Origin: a virus
Lineage: Duplodnaviria; Heunggongvirae; Uroviricota; Caudoviricetes
Reading direction: 5' to 3' (one strand)
DNA length: 40,315 nucleotides
IMG/VR virus record: IMGVR_UViG_2541047797_000007
In this document: in pieces, positions 1 through 33,633 of the stretch
Numbering within the stretch: position 1 is the first letter of the stretch
Layout: the number at the start of each line of letters is the position of its first letter
Notes under the pieces: model-generated
Told to the model about the DNA's origin: nothing
The model's input: only the letters and a program-made list of their open reading frames with translations
Databases searched by the model: none
Made by a program: the position numbers and the translations under genes

Positions 1-516
1 ATGAAATTTAAAAAATGTCTTCTGCCTGTGGCAATGTTAGCGTCATTCACTCTGGCAGGATGCCAGTCAAATGCTGATGATCATGCCGCCGATGTTTATC
101 AAACCGATCAACTGAATACCAAACAAGAAACTAAAACCGTTAATATTATTTCCATTCTTCCCGCAAAAGTTGCCGTAGACAACGCCCAAAATAAACGGAA
201 CGCACAAGCCTTCGGCGCGCTTATTGGCGCTGTCGCTGGCGGTGTTATCGGCCACAACGTCGGGTCTGGCAGCAATTCCGGAACGACGGCAGGTGCAGTT
301 GGCGGCGGAGCTGTAGGCGCGGCAGCGGGTTCTATGGTGAATGATAAAACCTTAGTGGAAGGTGTTTCTTTAACATATAAGGAAGGCACCAAAGTGTATA
401 CCTCCACCCAAGTGGGTAAAGAGTGCCAGTTTACGACAGGTTTAGCCGTTGTTATTACCACGACGTATAACGAAACGCGTATTCAGCCAAATACCAAATG
501 TCCTGAAAAGAGCTAA
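1..516 (+). CDS. yfgH: Host small outer-membrane lipoprotein, glycine-zipper type (YfgH-like)
   Basis: 171-aa ORF. Signal peptide ends in lipobox L-A-G-C (Cys21). Gly/Ala-rich zipper GALIGAVAGGVIGHNVGSG...GGGAVGAAAG. Lies next to a yfgI-like gene and a guaA 3' remnant, which matches the E. coli yfgH-yfgI-guaA neighbourhood as I remember it (not searched). Confidence 0.8.
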   Translation: MKFKKCLLPVAMLASFTLAGCQSNADDHAADVYQTDQLNTKQETKTVNIISILPAKVAVDNAQNKRNAQAFGALIGAVAGGVIGHNVGSGSNSGTTAGAVGGGAVGAAAGSMVNDKTLVEGVSLTYKEGTKVYTSTQVGKECQFTTGLAVVITTTYNETRIQPNTKCPEKS

Positions 517-5674: not shown

Positions 5675-5696
5675 ATTACCTGAAAAACCACATATG
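5675..5696 (-). promoter_or_regulatory. Conserved motif (minus strand CATATGTGGTT-N5-GGTAAT) upstream of the tailspike/lysis cassette; candidate activator-dependent late promoter
   Basis: 18 of 23 positions are identical to a copy at 24506-24527 upstream of the portal operon. A TAGAAT -10-like hexamer follows on the minus strand, with no -35 match. Confidence 0.4.
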
Positions 5697-5779: not shown

Positions 5780-5795
5780 CTGTATAAATATACAG
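5780..5795. promoter_or_regulatory. LexA (SOS) box
   Basis: taCTGTATAAATATACAGtt is a perfect CTGT-N8-ACAG with an AT-rich centre. It lies 22 nt upstream of ATG 5818. Confidence 0.8.
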
Positions 5796-6392: not shown

Positions 6393-7049
6393 ATGAACGC
6401 TCAACTCATCCCCGTATTCAACGGCACTATATCTAACGAAACAGCCCTACTTTGTAATGCCCGCGATCTGCACGCTTTTTTAGGTGTTAAAAAGGTGTTT
6501 GCAGCATGGATTACAAATCGCATATCAGAATACGAATTCATTGAAAATCAAGACTATATTTTGCTTTCCAATTTGGGAAAGCAAACATCTGGTAGAGGCG
6601 GCCACAACCGCAAAGAGTACCACCTCACCCTTGATACAGCCAAAGAGCTGGCGATGGTCGAGCGTAACGAAAAAGGTCGTCAGGTACGACGCTACTTCAT
6701 TGAATGCGAGAAACGTTTAAGACAACAAGAAACAAAAGTGGAGAAGGTCTTGTCAGGCTTCATGCCCGCCATTATGGAGGCGATCAAGCTGGAAGACAAA
6801 AAAGAATACAGTGCCCCGCTGAAGCCCGGCTACCGCAGCCTGATTCATTCGCCGTCTGGTGTTCTCGGCCTGACGGAGAACTCACTGCTGATGAATCTGC
6901 TGAACCAGTTACAGGAAGACGGGCACGACGTATCGGGCGCGGCGGCGGAACTGACCACCATGTTCTGCTACATCGTCGGTGTGAGCAAATGCCTGCGTGA
7001 TATCCAGACCCACGCGGAGTACATCAACGACAAGGCAGGGTTCTTCTGA
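6393..7049 (+). CDS. ant: Antirepressor, AntA/AntB-type N-terminal domain plus C-terminal domain shared with the 85-aa protein
   Basis: 218 aa. The N-terminal 110 aa match the AntA/AntB pattern (ARDLH.FL.V...F..WI..RI..Y.F.E..DY........GG.....[12 protein letters not shown]....G...R.YFIE.E). SD GGAG 6381-6384. Terminator downstream. Confidence 0.8.
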
Positions 7050-7980: not shown

Positions 7981-8020
7981 GTTAAAAACAAGGCCGCGAA
8001 AGCGGCCTGTGACATGTCAC
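7981..8020 (-). terminator. Terminator of the virion (late) operon preceded by palindrome GTGACATGTCAC
   Basis: The minus strand reads GTGACATGTCAC (8020-8009, containing the TGA stop of the 98-aa gene), then GGCCGC-tttc-GCGGCC (8007-7992), then TTGTTTTTAAC. Confidence 0.75.
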
Positions 8021-8313
8021 GCTCTTTTTCTGAATGATAGCCATTCGAAAAATGATGACATTCCACCGCAGACAATAGCAAAGATGATCCCACCAAAGAA
8101 GAGAAGGCCAGCCTGCCACCACTCCCACCGCCATACATCCACAGCGCCAACCATACCAACAATCGCTCCAACAAATGGAATATAGCTCACGATGAAAGCA
8201 ATGGGGGCTGCAATTATCCAGTGCAATCCCCACCATGATTCAAGCCCAGCCATAATTGCTGCCAACTGAAAAAGACCAACGACGATATAAACAATGAATC
8301 CTATAGCTTGCAT
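8017..8313 (-). CDS. Small integral membrane protein (3 TM), last gene of the virion operon
   Basis: 98 aa, very hydrophobic and Trp/Gly-rich. SD AGGTGA lies upstream of ATG 8313. Confidence 0.7.
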   Translation of the reverse strand: MQAIGFIVYIVVGLFQLAAIMAGLESWWGLHWIIAAPIAFIVSYIPFVGAIVGMVGAVDVWRWEWWQAGLLFFGGIIFAIVCGGMSSFFEWLSFRKRA

Positions 8314-25138: not shown

Positions 25139-26614
25139 TTAAGCATAGGGATCGTAATCTGTGATGGCCTTGCCTTGCTGGTTCTGCTGCCCGGGAATTC
25201 GCAGACGCTTCGACACAGGAAAAGCAAACGTCAGCAGTAGCGCATCGCCTTTACCCGGCGAACGCCCAAGCCGCTCCTTGATATCTTCCTTCGGTTCGAT
25301 AACGATTTTACCGTCCACGCGAACTTTGTACTCTGCCGCCGACAGGTCGTCTGCAGTTTCCTGGTCATCCAGCATGCCGCCCAGCCTCAGCCATGTCTTA
25401 CATGAGTTGAACATCTCCCCACGCTTGTTGAGCATCTGCGGGTCAGTAGACGCGCCACCGAACGGAACAAGTTGCCATGTACGACCCCAGCCGTCACCGA
25501 TTGACTTCAGACCAGTTCCGTAACCGAAGTCGATGAACACTGCGTCAGCCTGGTACTGGTCTTCAAAGTCAGCGATACGCTTCGCCATAATCAGATCGTC
25601 AGTGGTCTTGTTGCCAGTCCACAGCACCTTACTGTGCAGCCCCTGCCGCAGGTATATCACAGCGTCATCAACGCCTGAGTATGCCGGGTCAACGCCGATT
25701 ATCACCGGAGCATGTGCAACCTGCGCAGCGGTGACCACCCGTTTCATTGCCTCGTCAGTAAGTCCGGTAGGGATAAACTGCAATTCAGATGCATCCGGGA
25801 ATATGCCGCGCACACGGATTTTAACGAAGTCGCTGTCTTCCCCGTAGTCATCAACCCATTTCTGCAACTGCTGTTTGTTGGTGCCTTCCACCGTCCGGCT
25901 GTCAATCTGCGCAGTTTTCCAGCGGTGTTTATATTTGCGGAAACATTCGCGGAAACGTCCGGTATTACGCGTCGGGTTTCCGAACGCCACCCAGATAATC
26001 TCAGTGTCTTCGTCCGTTAGCGCACCCTCGGCAACTTCCCACACCAGATCCGCAATGTTCGACGCTTCATCGAATACCACGATGATGCGTTTGCGCTCGT
26101 TGTGTAGTCCGGCGAATGCCTCAGTGTTGTGCTCAGACCAGGGTATTGCGTCAGCTCGCCACCGCTTGTCGTGTCCAGGATCATTGCTGTACATCGCGGT
26201 AGCGGTACAGGTAAACCAGTCTTTCGTGATAGCAAGGTTCGACCACTTGATAATTTCCGGCCAGGTCTTCGTTCGTAGCTGGTTGTCGGTGTTGGCGGTC
26301 ACCACGACCTTACAATCCTCGCAAGTGGACATGCCCCAGTTGATCAGCATTGAGATGAATGCGGATTTACCAATACCGTGACCCGAAGCACGTGCCAGCA
26401 TAAGCGGCTGATAGCGCGTCTCTGGATTCTGCAGGTGATCACGTATCTCTCGGAACGCATCAGCCTGCCACTTACGTGGGCCGGTAGCATGTGCCAGTTC
26501 AGTCCCCTCTTCCCCCCACGGGAACGCATAGAGGGCATAGCCAAGCGGATCGTGAGTGAACCCTGCAATATCCTCGATCAACTGCTCTTCAGGAGATAAC
26601 GCTGTATCTGTCAC
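25139..26614 (-). CDS. terL: Terminase large subunit
   Basis: 491 aa. Walker A-like ARASGHGIGKS, acidic Walker B (IIVVFDEAS) and a C-terminal nuclease-like half. Overlaps the small subunit gene by 4 nt. Confidence 0.85.
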   Translation of the reverse strand: MTDTALSPEEQLIEDIAGFTHDPLGYALYAFPWGEEGTELAHATGPRKWQADAFREIRDHLQNPETRYQPLMLARASGHGIGKSAFISMLINWGMSTCEDCKVVVTANTDNQLRTKTWPEIIKWSNLAITKDWFTCTATAMYSNDPGHDKRWRADAIPWSEHNTEAFAGLHNERKRIIVVFDEASNIADLVWEVAEGALTDEDTEIIWVAFGNPTRNTGRFRECFRKYKHRWKTAQIDSRTVEGTNKQQLQKWVDDYGEDSDFVKIRVRGIFPDASELQFIPTGLTDEAMKRVVTAAQVAHAPVIIGVDPAYSGVDDAVIYLRQGLHSKVLWTGNKTTDDLIMAKRIADFEDQYQADAVFIDFGYGTGLKSIGDGWGRTWQLVPFGGASTDPQMLNKRGEMFNSCKTWLRLGGMLDDQETADDLSAAEYKVRVDGKIVIEPKEDIKERLGRSPGKGDALLLTFAFPVSKRLRIPGQQNQQGKAITDYDPYA

Positions 26615-27207
26615 TGATTACCATCCTGACGTTCTTTGAGTCGCTTCCTGGCTGCTGCTATGCGATCAGCAATTGTCACATTCACATTAACATCCAGACG
26701 TTCTTTGAACGCGTTGACATCAACATGCTTACCAATCAGCTCAAGGTTCTTCACCTTGTCAGGCCATTTAATTTTTTTGAGGATTGTCTCTATCGAATCC
26801 TCGTTCATGTTCATGATGGTCGATGACAGATCAAAGCCACTAAGCGTAGTGCGCCAGATTTTCGGCCACTCACGGATTGGTTTAAGGCTCCCATCGTCGT
26901 TGAGGATGTCGATCACGTCCATCTGGTCGATCTCCACCAGGCGCATGAGAACGTAATCAGCACTGACGCGCATTCGTTTGTTGCGCTCCTCCATCAACTC
27001 GGCAATCCGTTTTTGAATGCGTTCATCGCGCATCATGACGCTGGCTTTAACTGCCGCTGTATTTGGGGAGAATCCTGCGTTAATCGCTGCCTGAGTCTGG
27101 TTTTCAGGCGTTTTGATGTATGACTGGCAATAAGCCTCCTGCATTGCTGTTAGTGGCTTAAATTGCGTTGATTTGCGTTTATAGGTTTTAGGTTCAGCAG
27201 GCATCAT
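26611..27207 (-). CDS. terS: Terminase small subunit
   Basis: Start taken at MMPAEPKTYKRK (198 aa). The longer track ORF (to 27303) would run through an intrinsic terminator and two operator palindromes. The HTH-like LTAMQEAYCQSYIKTPENQTQAAINAGFS is typical of small terminases. Confidence 0.75.
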   Translation of the reverse strand: MMPAEPKTYKRKSTQFKPLTAMQEAYCQSYIKTPENQTQAAINAGFSPNTAAVKASVMMRDERIQKRIAELMEERNKRMRVSADYVLMRLVEIDQMDVIDILNDDGSLKPIREWPKIWRTTLSGFDLSSTIMNMNEDSIETILKKIKWPDKVKNLELIGKHVDVNAFKERLDVNVNVTIADRIAAARKRLKERQDGNQ

Positions 27208-27240
27208 AACCACCGTGGTAATAGTTACCGTTGTGGTAAT
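27206..27240. promoter_or_regulatory. Two adjacent operator palindromes at the 5' end of terS
   Basis: ATAACCACCGTGGTAAT (27206-27222) and GTTACCGTTGTGGTAAT (27224-27240). Confidence 0.55.
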
Positions 27241-27250
27241 AGTACCATGC

Positions 27251-27276
27251 AAAATAAAGCCGCCATAGTTGGCGGC
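27251..27276 (-). terminator. Strong intrinsic terminator between the early-right operon and terS
   Basis: The minus strand reads GCCGCC-aactat-GGCGGC (27276-27259) followed by TTTATTTT (27258-27251). Confidence 0.8.
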
Positions 27277-27316
27277 AGTATCCAAAACCGTCAAATTCAT
27301 CATGCATAATCTACTC

Positions 27317-27328
27317 GTGACATGTCAC
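27317..27328. promoter_or_regulatory. Palindrome GTGACATGTCAC (third copy), containing the TGA stop of the 115-aa gene
   Basis: Exact 12-bp palindrome. The other copies are at 8009-8020 and 25053-25064. Confidence 0.5.
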
Positions 27329-27672
27329 ACTATTAATTTCGTTTCATGCCAGCCTTTAGTCACCCAGCATTGCGAGTCACCATTACACGGGCATGAATTA
27401 ACTGGAACTCTCTCGCCGCACTTACCGCAACGTTTTCTGCTGATCGATTTTATACGCCCGCGCACACGTGCATCATCCTGGCGGATCAGCAGCGCGATGT
27501 ACTCGGCCATTTCATAGGGATCGCGACCAGGGCGCCGGGCGGCGCAGTTCCGCGCCAGCATTTCCTGCTCCTGCTTATCCAGCACCAGTTCAATTTTGCG
27601 CTCACCGGCGGCGGACTGCCGAGCGCGCTGCGCGGCTTTGCGTTCTGCGGGGGATTTAGCCACGAATCGCAC
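27325..27672 (-). CDS. Basic protein with C-terminal Cys-rich zinc-ribbon; candidate late-gene regulator
   Basis: 115 aa. N-terminal basic helix region (AERKAAQRARQSAAGERK). C-terminus is CGKCGERVPVNSCPCNGDSQCW. Last gene before the terminator/terS. Function inferred from position only. Confidence 0.6.
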   Translation of the reverse strand: MRFVAKSPAERKAAQRARQSAAGERKIELVLDKQEQEMLARNCAARRPGRDPYEMAEYIALLIRQDDARVRGRIKSISRKRCGKCGERVPVNSCPCNGDSQCWVTKGWHETKLIV

Positions 27673-30449: not shown

Positions 30450-30528
30450 TTTACCCCTTAGGTAATTAAAAACCACATAAGACATGAAATCAATAGAGAT
30501 TAGAACATTTTGTTACCCAACAGGTAAT
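30450..30528. promoter_or_regulatory. Two operator palindromes plus an AAAAACCACATA box between the P-like and DUF1064 genes
   Basis: TTTACCCCTTAGGTAAT (30450-30466) abuts ATG 30447. GTTACCCAACAGGTAAT sits at 30512-30528. AAAAACCACATA (30468-30479) is identical to 5684-5695. Confidence 0.55.
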
Positions 30529-31350: not shown

Positions 31351-32162
31351 AAGAAATCCTCCCATGCTTCAGGGCTGTTCCAGTGCGGAACGTTGTTATC
31401 AGGTAATGTTGATTGCTTCTGTCTGCTAATCTGCAGCCGCCTTGCCAGCTTCTGCTCCCACTGTGCCTGATGGTATGCCTTACCCTCAGCCATCCAGTAA
31501 ATTCTGAACTCTGCAAGTTCCTGTGCCGTTGGCAGACTGTCCAGGTAGATCCCCTGCAATGAGCTTTTCCGAAGAAAGTCATCTGATGGTTGCCATTGTT
31601 CATGCATGACAAATTTGCCTAATTGCCCTGGCCCACCAGGAGGAACAAAGTTATTCATCACGGCGTTGTTTGCGCCGGGGTCATGAGGCACAGAATCCCC
31701 GGTTTTTGTCCTGCTCTCCCTCTCTTGGTTAAATGACTGGTTATATGACTGGTTCTGGATCCCGTTTTTGGGATCATTCAACATCCCGTTTTTGGGATCA
31801 TTCAACATCCCGTTTTTGGGTATATTCCCGTTTTCGGGAACATTACCGTTTTCGGGTTCATTACAGCCTTCTAGGTTGCCTTTAATGTTCCCGTTTTTGG
31901 TTATATTAAGAGAGAAAACCCGCACTCTTTTTGTCGCTCCCTTTCTCTCTCCGGTATCTGAAATAAGCCCCATTTTCATGAGCGATATAAGTCCGGCCTG
32001 CACGGTTTTTTTATTCAGGCAAGTGTCTTTAACGAGGCGTTCTATGCTGGGGTAGCAGAGGTTATATTCATCGGCTCTGTCAGCCATCGAGAGCAGTATG
32101 AGCTTTAATGACGAGCTACCTGGATCTGTCTCCCAGGCCCAATCTGTTGCATGTCTGCTCAT
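31347..32162 (-). CDS. Replication initiator (O-like) with N-terminal winged-HTH and internal iteron-encoded repeats
   Basis: 271 aa. SD GGAG upstream. The N-terminus (LKLILLSMADRADEYNLCYPSIERLVKDT.LNKKTV...L..L...GLI) is HTH-like. Peptide repeats PENGN/PKNGMLND are encoded by the iterons. Confidence 0.75.
   Translation of the reverse strand: MSRHATDWAWETDPGSSSLKLILLSMADRADEYNLCYPSIERLVKDTCLNKKTVQAGLISLMKMGLISDTGERKGATKRVRVFSLNITKNGNIKGNLEGCNEPENGNVPENGNIPKNGMLNDPKNGMLNDPKNGIQNQSYNQSFNQERESRTKTGDSVPHDPGANNAVMNNFVPPGGPGQLGKFVMHEQWQPSDDFLRKSSLQGIYLDSLPTAQELAEFRIYWMAEGKAYHQAQWEQKLARRLQISRQKQSTLPDNNVPHWNSPEAWEDFL
31758..31902. repeat. Origin iterons (6 copies of TCCCGTTTTTGGGA-like dyad)
   Basis: Cores lie at 31760-31773, 31784-31797, 31808-31821, 31826-31839, 31844-31857 and 31889-31902. 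Spacings are 24, 24, 18, 18 and 45 bp. They lie inside the O-like gene, as in lambda ori. Confidence 0.75.
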
Positions 32163-33554: not shown

Positions 33555-33633
33555 ATTACCTGATGGGTAATTTTTTTAACTCATATCTATTGACATCAAA
33601 CCAGATACGCATAATTATTACCTCAACGGTAAC
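33555..33633 (+). promoter_or_regulatory. Early-left promoter with two operators
   Basis: ATTACCTGATGGGTAAT (33555-33571). TTGACA (33590-33595), 16-17-nt spacer, TAATTA/AATTAT (33612-33618). ATTACCTCAACGGTAAC (33617-33633) overlaps the -10/+1. Confidence 0.65.

Follow-up and report, generated by a model that had tools for sequence, protein, structure and literature searches.

A predicted DNA-binding protein gene and a palindrome on its own stop codon at the early/packaging operon boundary of an epsilon15-like prophage

Several described systems resemble parts of the locus presented here. Q-type antiterminators (lambda Q, Q82, Q21) are paired with a DNA element inside the late promoter, followed by a terminator, and the Ogr/Delta regulators are proteins of about 70-80 aa that carry an Ogr_Delta domain. 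Ribbon-helix-helix (RHH) regulators such as Arc, Mnt, CopG, TraM and antitoxins have a beta-alpha-alpha fold and recognise short palindromes as dimers or tetramers. LacI bound at O3, at the end of lacI, reportedly acts as a roadblock that gives a truncated lacI mRNA, an effect said to have been described by Abo and colleagues in 2000. In the DksA/TraR family, a C4 zinc finger (CxxC-x17-CxxC) follows a long helix, and MatP, the Ter-macrodomain protein of Enterobacterales and Vibrionales, has an N-terminal four-helix bundle and a C-terminal coiled coil. The MatP site, matS, has the consensus GTGAC[AG]N[TC]GTCAC (PMC3603311).

We analyzed a stretch of 40,315 nt of viral DNA (IMG/VR record IMGVR_UViG_2541047797_000007, hereafter the window). 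A preliminary description of it had placed a strong terminator between the early-right operon and the small terminase gene terS, next to a gene for a zinc-ribbon protein, and had asked whether this is Q-like antitermination or a new late switch. We tentatively explain the locus, roadblock mechanism included, as the early-right/packaging operon boundary of an epsilon15-like prophage on which three layers are superimposed: a terminator, a promoter with operators, and a protein with its palindrome.

Terminator, candidate promoter and operators before terS

By its matches, among them TL-2011b, phiV10, ZX5 and EC.W1-9, the window belongs with the epsilon15/phiV10-type temperate podophages (genus Uetakevirus). 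Its early-right operon, on the minus strand, comprises O-like and P-like replication genes and DUF1064, PAPS-reductase-like and DUF551 genes; it ends with ORF 27325..27672, after which come terS, terL, the portal gene and other late genes. A tandem pair of TGGGATCATTCAACATCCCGTTTTTGGG sequences inside the gene for the O-like replication initiator (window 31769-31812) probably represents origin iterons. All the elements listed in the preliminary description are present on the minus strand: the ORF, the palindrome on its stop codon, the GC hairpin followed by TTTATTTT, and two operators on the terS start. Between the regulator gene and terS, the features are as follows.

26611..27204, minus strand: terS, small terminase subunit (Terminase_2; Pfam E = 1.6e-29), start as annotated in TL-2011b
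27207-27221, no strand: operator O2, TTACCACGGTGGTTA (1 mismatch), overlapping the terS Shine-Dalgarno sequence and first ATG
27225-27239, no strand: operator O1, TTACCACAACGGTAA, spanning about -7 to +8 of the candidate promoter
27239-27247, minus strand: candidate extended -10 element for terS, TGgTACTAT, from sequence and conservation, with a predicted transcription start at about 27232
27251..27276, minus strand: intrinsic terminator, 6-7 bp G+C stem then TTTATTTT, from terminator scan and folding

The gap between the regulator gene and terS had been given as 117 nt, which is right up to ATG 27207 and becomes 120 nt up to the better-placed ATG 27204, the start used in TL-2011b and most likely the true one. 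An in-frame ATG further upstream (27303) is not conserved, relatives having 1-nt indels there. We also rejected a Thr-rich leader or attenuator starting at 27303 (TITTTVTITT), since these indels break its ORF in relatives and its repeated codons are the operators. The 40 nt from the palindrome to the terminator (27277-27316) are a remnant, reduced to the last codons, of a 70-aa ORF (MPKIRYDLEDMRDNS...DEFDGL) that is intact in many relatives (e.g., L015, 1109-1320).

The terminator closes the early-right operon just before terS. It consists of the G+C-rich hairpin GCCGCC-AACTAT-GGCGGC and a U-tract (TTTATTTT), as expected of an intrinsic (rho-independent) terminator. A terminator scan finds it, its fold energy is -14.9 kcal/mol (z = -4.7, with none of 200 shuffles as stable), and a terminator is annotated at the homologous position in epsilon15 (stem_loop 39646..39672, after gp49) and in phiV10. 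As can be read directly from the sequence, it would shield terS from early transcription. In relatives with a umuD-like insert, we found no terminator-like structure between the regulator gene and terS; these relatives retain a promoter-like element, operator-like repeats and the palindrome.

Both operators have the form TTACC-N5-GGTAA, the same as the OR/OL sites of the immunity region. There, sites of this form stand around the repressor gene (32844, 33556 and 33618); the one at 33618 directly follows the -10 of a consensus promoter (TTGACA-17-AATTAT). Fourteen such sites (up to 1 mismatch) occur in the window against 0.62 expected, located at OR, OL, terS, the gp3-like, tailspike and DUF1064 genes, and the antirepressor region. 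The epsilon15 GenBank record likewise annotates repressor binding just upstream of terS (protein_bind 12..27) and again before gp3 and the tailspike gene. By their immunity-region form and annotated homologous position, O1 and O2 are predicted operators of an epsilon15-like prophage repressor. The terminator and operators before terS are already known as annotated features of relatives (both in epsilon15, the terminator also in phiV10).

The preliminary description had seen no convincing promoter downstream of the terminator. This held for a two-hexamer scan, which returned nothing there, and missed a conserved extended -10, TGgTACTAT, which directly follows the T-tract and whose final T is the first T of O1. 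The arrangement resembles that of PL, with -10 and operator in the same register (GCATAATTATTACCTCAACGGTAAC against GCATGGTACTATTACCACAACGGTAAC). The fusion of TGnTA(C/T/G)TAT to an operator is conserved in 37 of the 37 distinct terS-upstream sequences that we collected, a set that includes epsilon15-type, E. coli and Salmonella sequences as well as the umuD-insert variants, whose flanks are unrelated; the versions found in relatives are TGtTACTAT, TGgTATTAT, TGaTACTAT and TGaTAGTAT. As a conserved TGnTATAAT-like element upstream of terS, it is a candidate extended -10 promoter for sigma-70. It has no -35 element and, given this, may need an activator.

Because the -10/operator unit is conserved in all variants and the terminator is missing from the umuD-insert relatives, terS probably has its own repressor-controlled promoter, its activity predicted from sequence, and read-through would not be required. 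The earlier argument that terS depends on read-through is weakened by the same evidence, with operators abutting a conserved extended -10 in the PL register and relatives that lack the terminator. The packaging genes would then be kept off directly by the prophage repressor and released by its inactivation, with no need for Q-type antitermination.

Two further elements accompany repressor operators elsewhere in the window. The late strand carries all three exact copies of the 9-mer TATGTGGTT (5686-5694, 24517-24525 and 30471-30479, minus). Each copy follows a repressor operator by 31-43 nt and precedes the tailspike, gp3-like or DUF1064 gene; GGTAATA comes next in two copies and a further operator in one. 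This 9-mer may be a shared promoter or activator element that is missing from the terS region. A LexA-box-like CTGT-N8-ACAG (CTGTATATTTATACAG, 5780-5795) adjoins a repressor operator between the tailspike gene and divergent plus-strand genes, which fits the LexA-controlled antirepressor reportedly described in SPC32H.

A predicted RHH and zinc-knuckle protein and its putative site

The third layer is formed by the last early gene and by a palindrome that recurs at two other places in the window.

27325..27663, minus strand: gene for a predicted RHH and Cys4 zinc-knuckle DNA-binding protein of 112 aa (epsilon15 gp49 family, PHROG 536)
27317-27328, no strand: palindrome copy 1, GTGACATGTCAC, a putative protein site containing the regulator stop codon TGA (27325-27327)
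25053..25064, no strand: palindrome copy 2, 4 nt after the post-terL hairpin (25069-25088), bordering a variable moron region
8009..8020, no strand: palindrome copy 3, containing the TGA of a 98-aa membrane-protein ORF (8017..8313, minus)

The ORF first described as a 115-aa gene (27325..27672) is present; that length corresponds to an alternative GTG at 27672, and most homologs have 112 aa, which corresponds to GTG 27663. The protein has no Pfam, NCBIfam or PDB sequence match and matches PHROG 536, "transcriptional regulator," with E = 5.5e-54. Its family is small (151 clusters at 50% identity) but widespread in prophages of Enterobacterales and Vibrio, some protein clusters comprising hundreds of sequences; named phage records with a homolog have Escherichia, Salmonella, Klebsiella, Yersinia, Vibrio, Aeromonas, Pectobacterium and Pantoea as hosts. 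When 50 diverse members are aligned, the N-terminus proves to be basic (RK..QR.R) and is followed by a core of one strand and two helices and by the motif C-x2-C...C...C, in which C79 and C82 are invariant and the second Cys pair is not conserved. The Cys pattern, C-x2-C-x9-C-x-C-x5-C, follows the RHH domain. In a confident AlphaFold model (pLDDT 89.8), one N-terminal helix is followed by the RHH domain, the zinc knuckle and a short C-terminal helix. The predicted beta-alpha-alpha fold places the protein in the ribbon-helix-helix superfamily.

The protein had been characterized as basic, with a C-terminal zinc ribbon, and unlike Q, and no search of ours gave a Q match. Pfam, sequence and profile searches of the family revealed no resemblance to Q or Ogr/Delta. 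Marginal matches to DksA/TraR arose in a PDB profile search, in which the long helix and zinc part matched the DksA/TraR-family proteins YbiI and TraR (E 0.08-0.1, not significant), and are a lead, not a result; a scan of 50 members listed 25 families, none of them the DksA/TraR zinc finger. Foldseek searches of the model against PDB and BFVD were uninformative.

Homologs lie at or near the ends of early operons. In a P2-like Yersinia phage, the homolog follows gpA and a separate 72-aa regulator gene lies after gpD, in the Ogr position; the record of phiKO2, whose homolog is Gp45, annotates a putative late promoter and terminator of its own. Because these two phages have other late-control features, the family is not a general late switch or activator, and the suggested late switch does not hold as its general role.

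The window holds exactly three copies of the palindrome GTGACATGTCAC (at 27317, 25053 and 8009), and the three exact copies of GTGACNNGTCAC compare with 0.02 expected. In epsilon15-like phages, copies 2 and 3 stand where the terS-terL unit and the structural-gene unit end. The hairpin before copy 2 has no good U-tract in the late direction, and copy 3 directly abuts a terminator, AGGCCGC-TTTC-GCGGCCT TGTTTTT (7984-8008). No promoter was found in the window at a fixed distance from the palindrome, copies 2 and 3 included, and the sole promoter-like match that includes copy 1 is weak (9/12).

Between terL and the gp3-like gene, next to copy 2, the window also carries a convergent small unit on the plus strand (24922-25090), with TGGACA-17-TACAAT as promoter-like sequence, a possible ORF of 36 aa (MKLQCLHAALIQ...) and, at 25069-25088, a good terminator with a T-tract; in relatives, this slot holds many different morons.

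The same three palindrome positions are occupied in phiV10 and epsilon15 (copy 3 at 19493 and 19517, respectively), and the first two in SPC32H. At copy 2, the hairpin sequence varies among relatives, the spacer stays at 3-4 nt, the palindrome is invariant and the sequence downstream is hypervariable. The palindrome accompanies the 3' end of the regulator gene in 82 related IMG/VR loci, irrespective of the next element, which may be the 70-aa ORF, a umuD-like gene under LexA control or another insert. Distant homologs on unrelated backbones repeat this, as GTGAC-NN-GTCAC contains the stop codon or starts no more than 3 nt after it in the following cases.

P2-like Yersinia phage: GTGACGCGTCAC at the regulator stop
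phiKO2 Gp45 and KpLi5: GTGACTGGTCAC at the regulator stop
Vibrio phage 10N.237.312.C11_PE002B and VPHZ6: GTGACAGGTCAC at the regulator stop
IMG/VR loci L089-L096: GTGAC-NN-GTCAC at the regulator stop

In the Yersinia phage, gene, palindrome and terminator follow one another in this order. In phiKO2, KpLi5, L095, L096 and the L015-type loci, a ribosome-binding site alone separates the palindrome from the next start codon. There are exceptions: a weak match in an Aeromonas phage and locus L063 lack the palindrome, and in Vibrio phage K233 it is missing from the stop codon of the homolog. K233 has three copies at other places, and two of these precede a start codon by 19 nt, in one case that of terS.

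Throughout, the arms of the palindrome are invariant and its central dinucleotide varies. Invariant arms around a free center fit a dimeric protein that reads double-stranded DNA and not an RNA stem, from which we infer that the palindrome is probably the binding site of the regulator protein. Two conserved arginines near the N-terminus, R8 and R13, and the beta-strand are candidates for reading GTGAC.

We considered and rejected three other readings of the palindrome. An RNA hairpin would have a stem of only 4 bp, and the center alone varies, with no compensatory changes in the arms. The phiV10 record starts inside the palindrome, as a cos or pac site might suggest; this record ends at the stop codon of the last gene, so its ends are not physical ones, and the P2-like and N15-like homologs do not lie beside terminase genes. 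An activator site of class I or II for the terS promoter does not fit the spacing, as palindrome and promoter are about 90 nt apart in some relatives and up to about 290 nt in others.

Some related loci carry additional elements at the palindrome. In L051, L055, L072, L078 and L081, promoters with a LexA box are inserted directly after it (about 7-60 nt); they drive a umuD-like gene in four loci, which have no terminator before terS, and another small gene in L081. L090 (6317-6428) has two palindromes, GTGACGGGTCAC and GTGACAGGTCAC, on either side of an insert (about 85 nt) with a long perfect hairpin, a double copy that looks like insertion into, or duplication of, the palindrome site. A non-coding Vibrio-type block, GGYTTWGCAGGT...TTTACAC, lies at a constant distance of about 20 nt after the palindrome in L089 (about 545-590), L090 (about 6430-6480) and L100 (about 1775-1830), and may be a promoter under control of the regulator protein.

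Possible roles of the protein and its site

In the explanation that we tentatively prefer, the regulator protein would bind at the palindromes on 3' ends and act on elongating RNA polymerase as a roadblock or insulator. It would thereby strengthen termination, bar transcription from neighboring morons and feed back on its own mRNA, and a site on its own stop codon would make this feedback independent of the promoter. The pairing of protein and site comes from sequence comparison, to which the roadblock mechanism adds a conjecture of ours. In epsilon15-like phages, the site lies at no fixed distance from promoters, and in several phages a ribosome-binding site alone stands between it and the next gene. 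Two placements lean toward a roadblock: in the umuD-insert relatives, where we found no terminator, the palindrome is the sole candidate barrier between the early operon and terS, and, 3-4 nt past the post-terL hairpin, it is where a stalled polymerase would be held. Copies 1 and 3, upstream of terminators that are already competent, suit the loading of an antitermination factor at least as well. K233, with its displaced copies, and the Aeromonas match and L063, which have none, also speak against the preferred explanation.

Sites beside hairpins or terminators at three operon ends make a role in termination or antitermination possible. The palindrome-bound protein could be a DNA-loaded antiterminator, Q-like in logic only, which modifies passing RNA polymerase. 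Transcription moving rightward from the early operon would then read through the terminator before terS, the post-terL hairpin and convergent moron, and the terminator that closes the structural genes, and a single long late transcript would result. We regard this as unlikely, even though the gene is the last of the early operon and immediately precedes the late genes, the three palindromes coincide with three barriers to rightward transcription (copies 1 and 3 upstream of terminators), and the Yersinia phage repeats the order of gene, palindrome and terminator. The DksA/TraR family, to which YbiI and TraR give weak profile matches (E 0.08-0.1), binds RNA polymerase, but the TraR match is not significant and the protein is similar to no Q family and not to Ogr. 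In addition, relatives without the terminator retain the palindrome, the late units have repressor operators of their own, some phages with a homolog have late-control features of another kind in their records, and, in the late direction, the post-terL palindrome comes after the hairpin. Q-like antitermination in the form first suggested is not upheld, there being no Q homology and the palindrome, unlike a Q-binding element, not being embedded in a promoter.

The resemblance of the palindrome to matS suggests another role, which we hold to be quite unlikely: a MatP-like DNA organizer would bind the 12-bp sites to bridge or mark phage DNA, with secondary effects on transcription, or would interfere with host MatP/matS and MukBEF. 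The half-sites GTGAC and GTCAC are identical to those of matS, and the named host taxa of phages with a homolog presumably all have MatP. True matS sites are avoided in prophages (PMC3603311), so that a version one base shorter could serve as a private site. Nevertheless, an hhalign comparison of the family profile with E. coli MatP gave no signal, there is no Pfam MatP match, and the AlphaFold model has neither four-helix bundle nor coiled coil. Most loci outside the epsilon15 group show one site in the stretch examined, which argues against bridging, and the strict placement on stop codons is left unexplained. Sequence homology to MatP was rejected as a candidate; the MatP homologs retrieved were near-identical and too uniform for a useful profile. 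Just as doubtful is a related version, in which a stripped-down MatP-like RHH and zinc-knuckle protein would read a private, shorter matS and control RNA polymerase or SMC/MukBEF-type machines at operon boundaries.

The protein might also be an ordinary transcription factor, with the palindrome as operator or activator site for a promoter just downstream, and this we find rather improbable. Some loci would suit it: a TTGAC(T/G) -35 with a LexA box 7-9 nt after the palindrome in L051, L055, L072, L078 and L081, and the conserved GGYTTWGCAGGT block at a constant distance (about 20 nt) in L089, L090 and VPHZ6, the candidate in Vibrio-type phages being a conserved element about 27 nt after the palindrome. 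Against it, copies 1 to 3 in the window have no promoter at a fixed distance, and phiKO2, KpLi5, L095, L096 and the L015-type loci, with a ribosome-binding site alone, leave no room for one. Finally, the palindromes coincide with mosaic junctions and could serve recombination instead of transcription, as a site or microhomology for the exchange of moron cassettes to which the protein is accessory or merely linked, a very unlikely reading even with copies 1 and 2 conserved up to the palindrome and hypervariable right after it (at least 8 different downstream modules) and two L090 copies flanking an insert of about 85 nt, since the module has no linked recombinase, 12 bp is short by the measure of known site-specific systems, and conserved functional sites commonly turn into mosaic boundaries without serving recombination.

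Altogether, roles in antitermination, MatP-like organization, ordinary operator function and recombination are possible next to the preferred roadblock; the terminator and operators are known, and the gene-palindrome module appears to be new. The searchable literature does not contain the string GTGACATGTCAC, the palindrome is not annotated in the epsilon15 record, and the ZX5 paper contains nothing on late control; the module and its matS-like half-sites appear undescribed so far. If these phages, as is probable, keep their packaging genes directly under the prophage repressor, this is a departure from the lambda scheme. The new element is a testable protein-site pair, a small RHH and zinc protein and a palindrome on its own stop codon, further copies of which stand at the ends of operons and at mosaic junctions. 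It offers a concrete way into a family so far labeled "transcriptional regulator" or "hypothetical" and may account for the insulation of transcription units and morons in this phage group. Given half-sites like those of matS, one may ask about cross-talk with the organization of the host chromosome, and a MatP-like reading of boundaries, if true, would make this a DNA-anchored device for termination, antitermination or insulation that has no described counterpart in phages.

Comparison with known systems

The locus agrees with the Rep operators of epsilon15 and SPC32H: the two TTACC-N5-GGTAA sites on the terS start match the immunity operators and are annotated in the same place in epsilon15, with no difference seen. 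The likeness to lambda Q and PR'-tR' is one of layout, the last early gene encoding a small regulator with a zinc motif and a terminator separating it from the late genes. However, the window protein has no similarity to Q in sequence or fold, including lambda Q, Q82 and Q21, and the palindrome overlaps a stop codon instead of lying inside a late promoter ahead of a terminator; in relatives, a ribosome-binding site alone or a whole ORF follows it. The late genes of the window have repressor-controlled promoter candidates of their own, and the terminator is dispensable in relatives. The protein also differs from Ogr/Delta, as it has no Pfam match to Ogr_Delta and a different Cys pattern.

With MatP/matS, the locus shares an RHH domain preceded by a basic helix and identical half-sites, GTGAC/GTCAC. 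The phage site nevertheless has a 2-nt center and 12 bp, against 3 nt and 13 bp in matS; in the phage genomes scanned with spacers of 0-6 nt, every site had a 2-nt center and none was a 13-bp GTGAC-RNY-GTCAC. In the predicted model, the phage protein has a Cys4 zinc knuckle after the RHH domain in place of a four-helix bundle and coiled coil, it matches neither MatP family in Pfam (PF06303, PF17414), and hhalign gives a probability of 0.3% against E. coli MatP. The phage sites are few per genome and lie at operon ends.

RHH regulators have the predicted beta-alpha-alpha fold in common with the phage protein, which may likewise recognise a short palindrome as a dimer or tetramer; sequence comparison links a palindrome with invariant arms to the gene across the family. 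The sites of Arc, Mnt, CopG, TraM and antitoxins overlap the 5' promoters of the genes that they regulate, whereas the phage site is at the 3' end of its own gene, on the stop codon. LacI at O3 comes from an unrelated protein family and the phage effect is hypothetical, but both systems place the site of a DNA-binding protein across the 3' end of its own coding sequence, where it could provide promoter-independent feedback.
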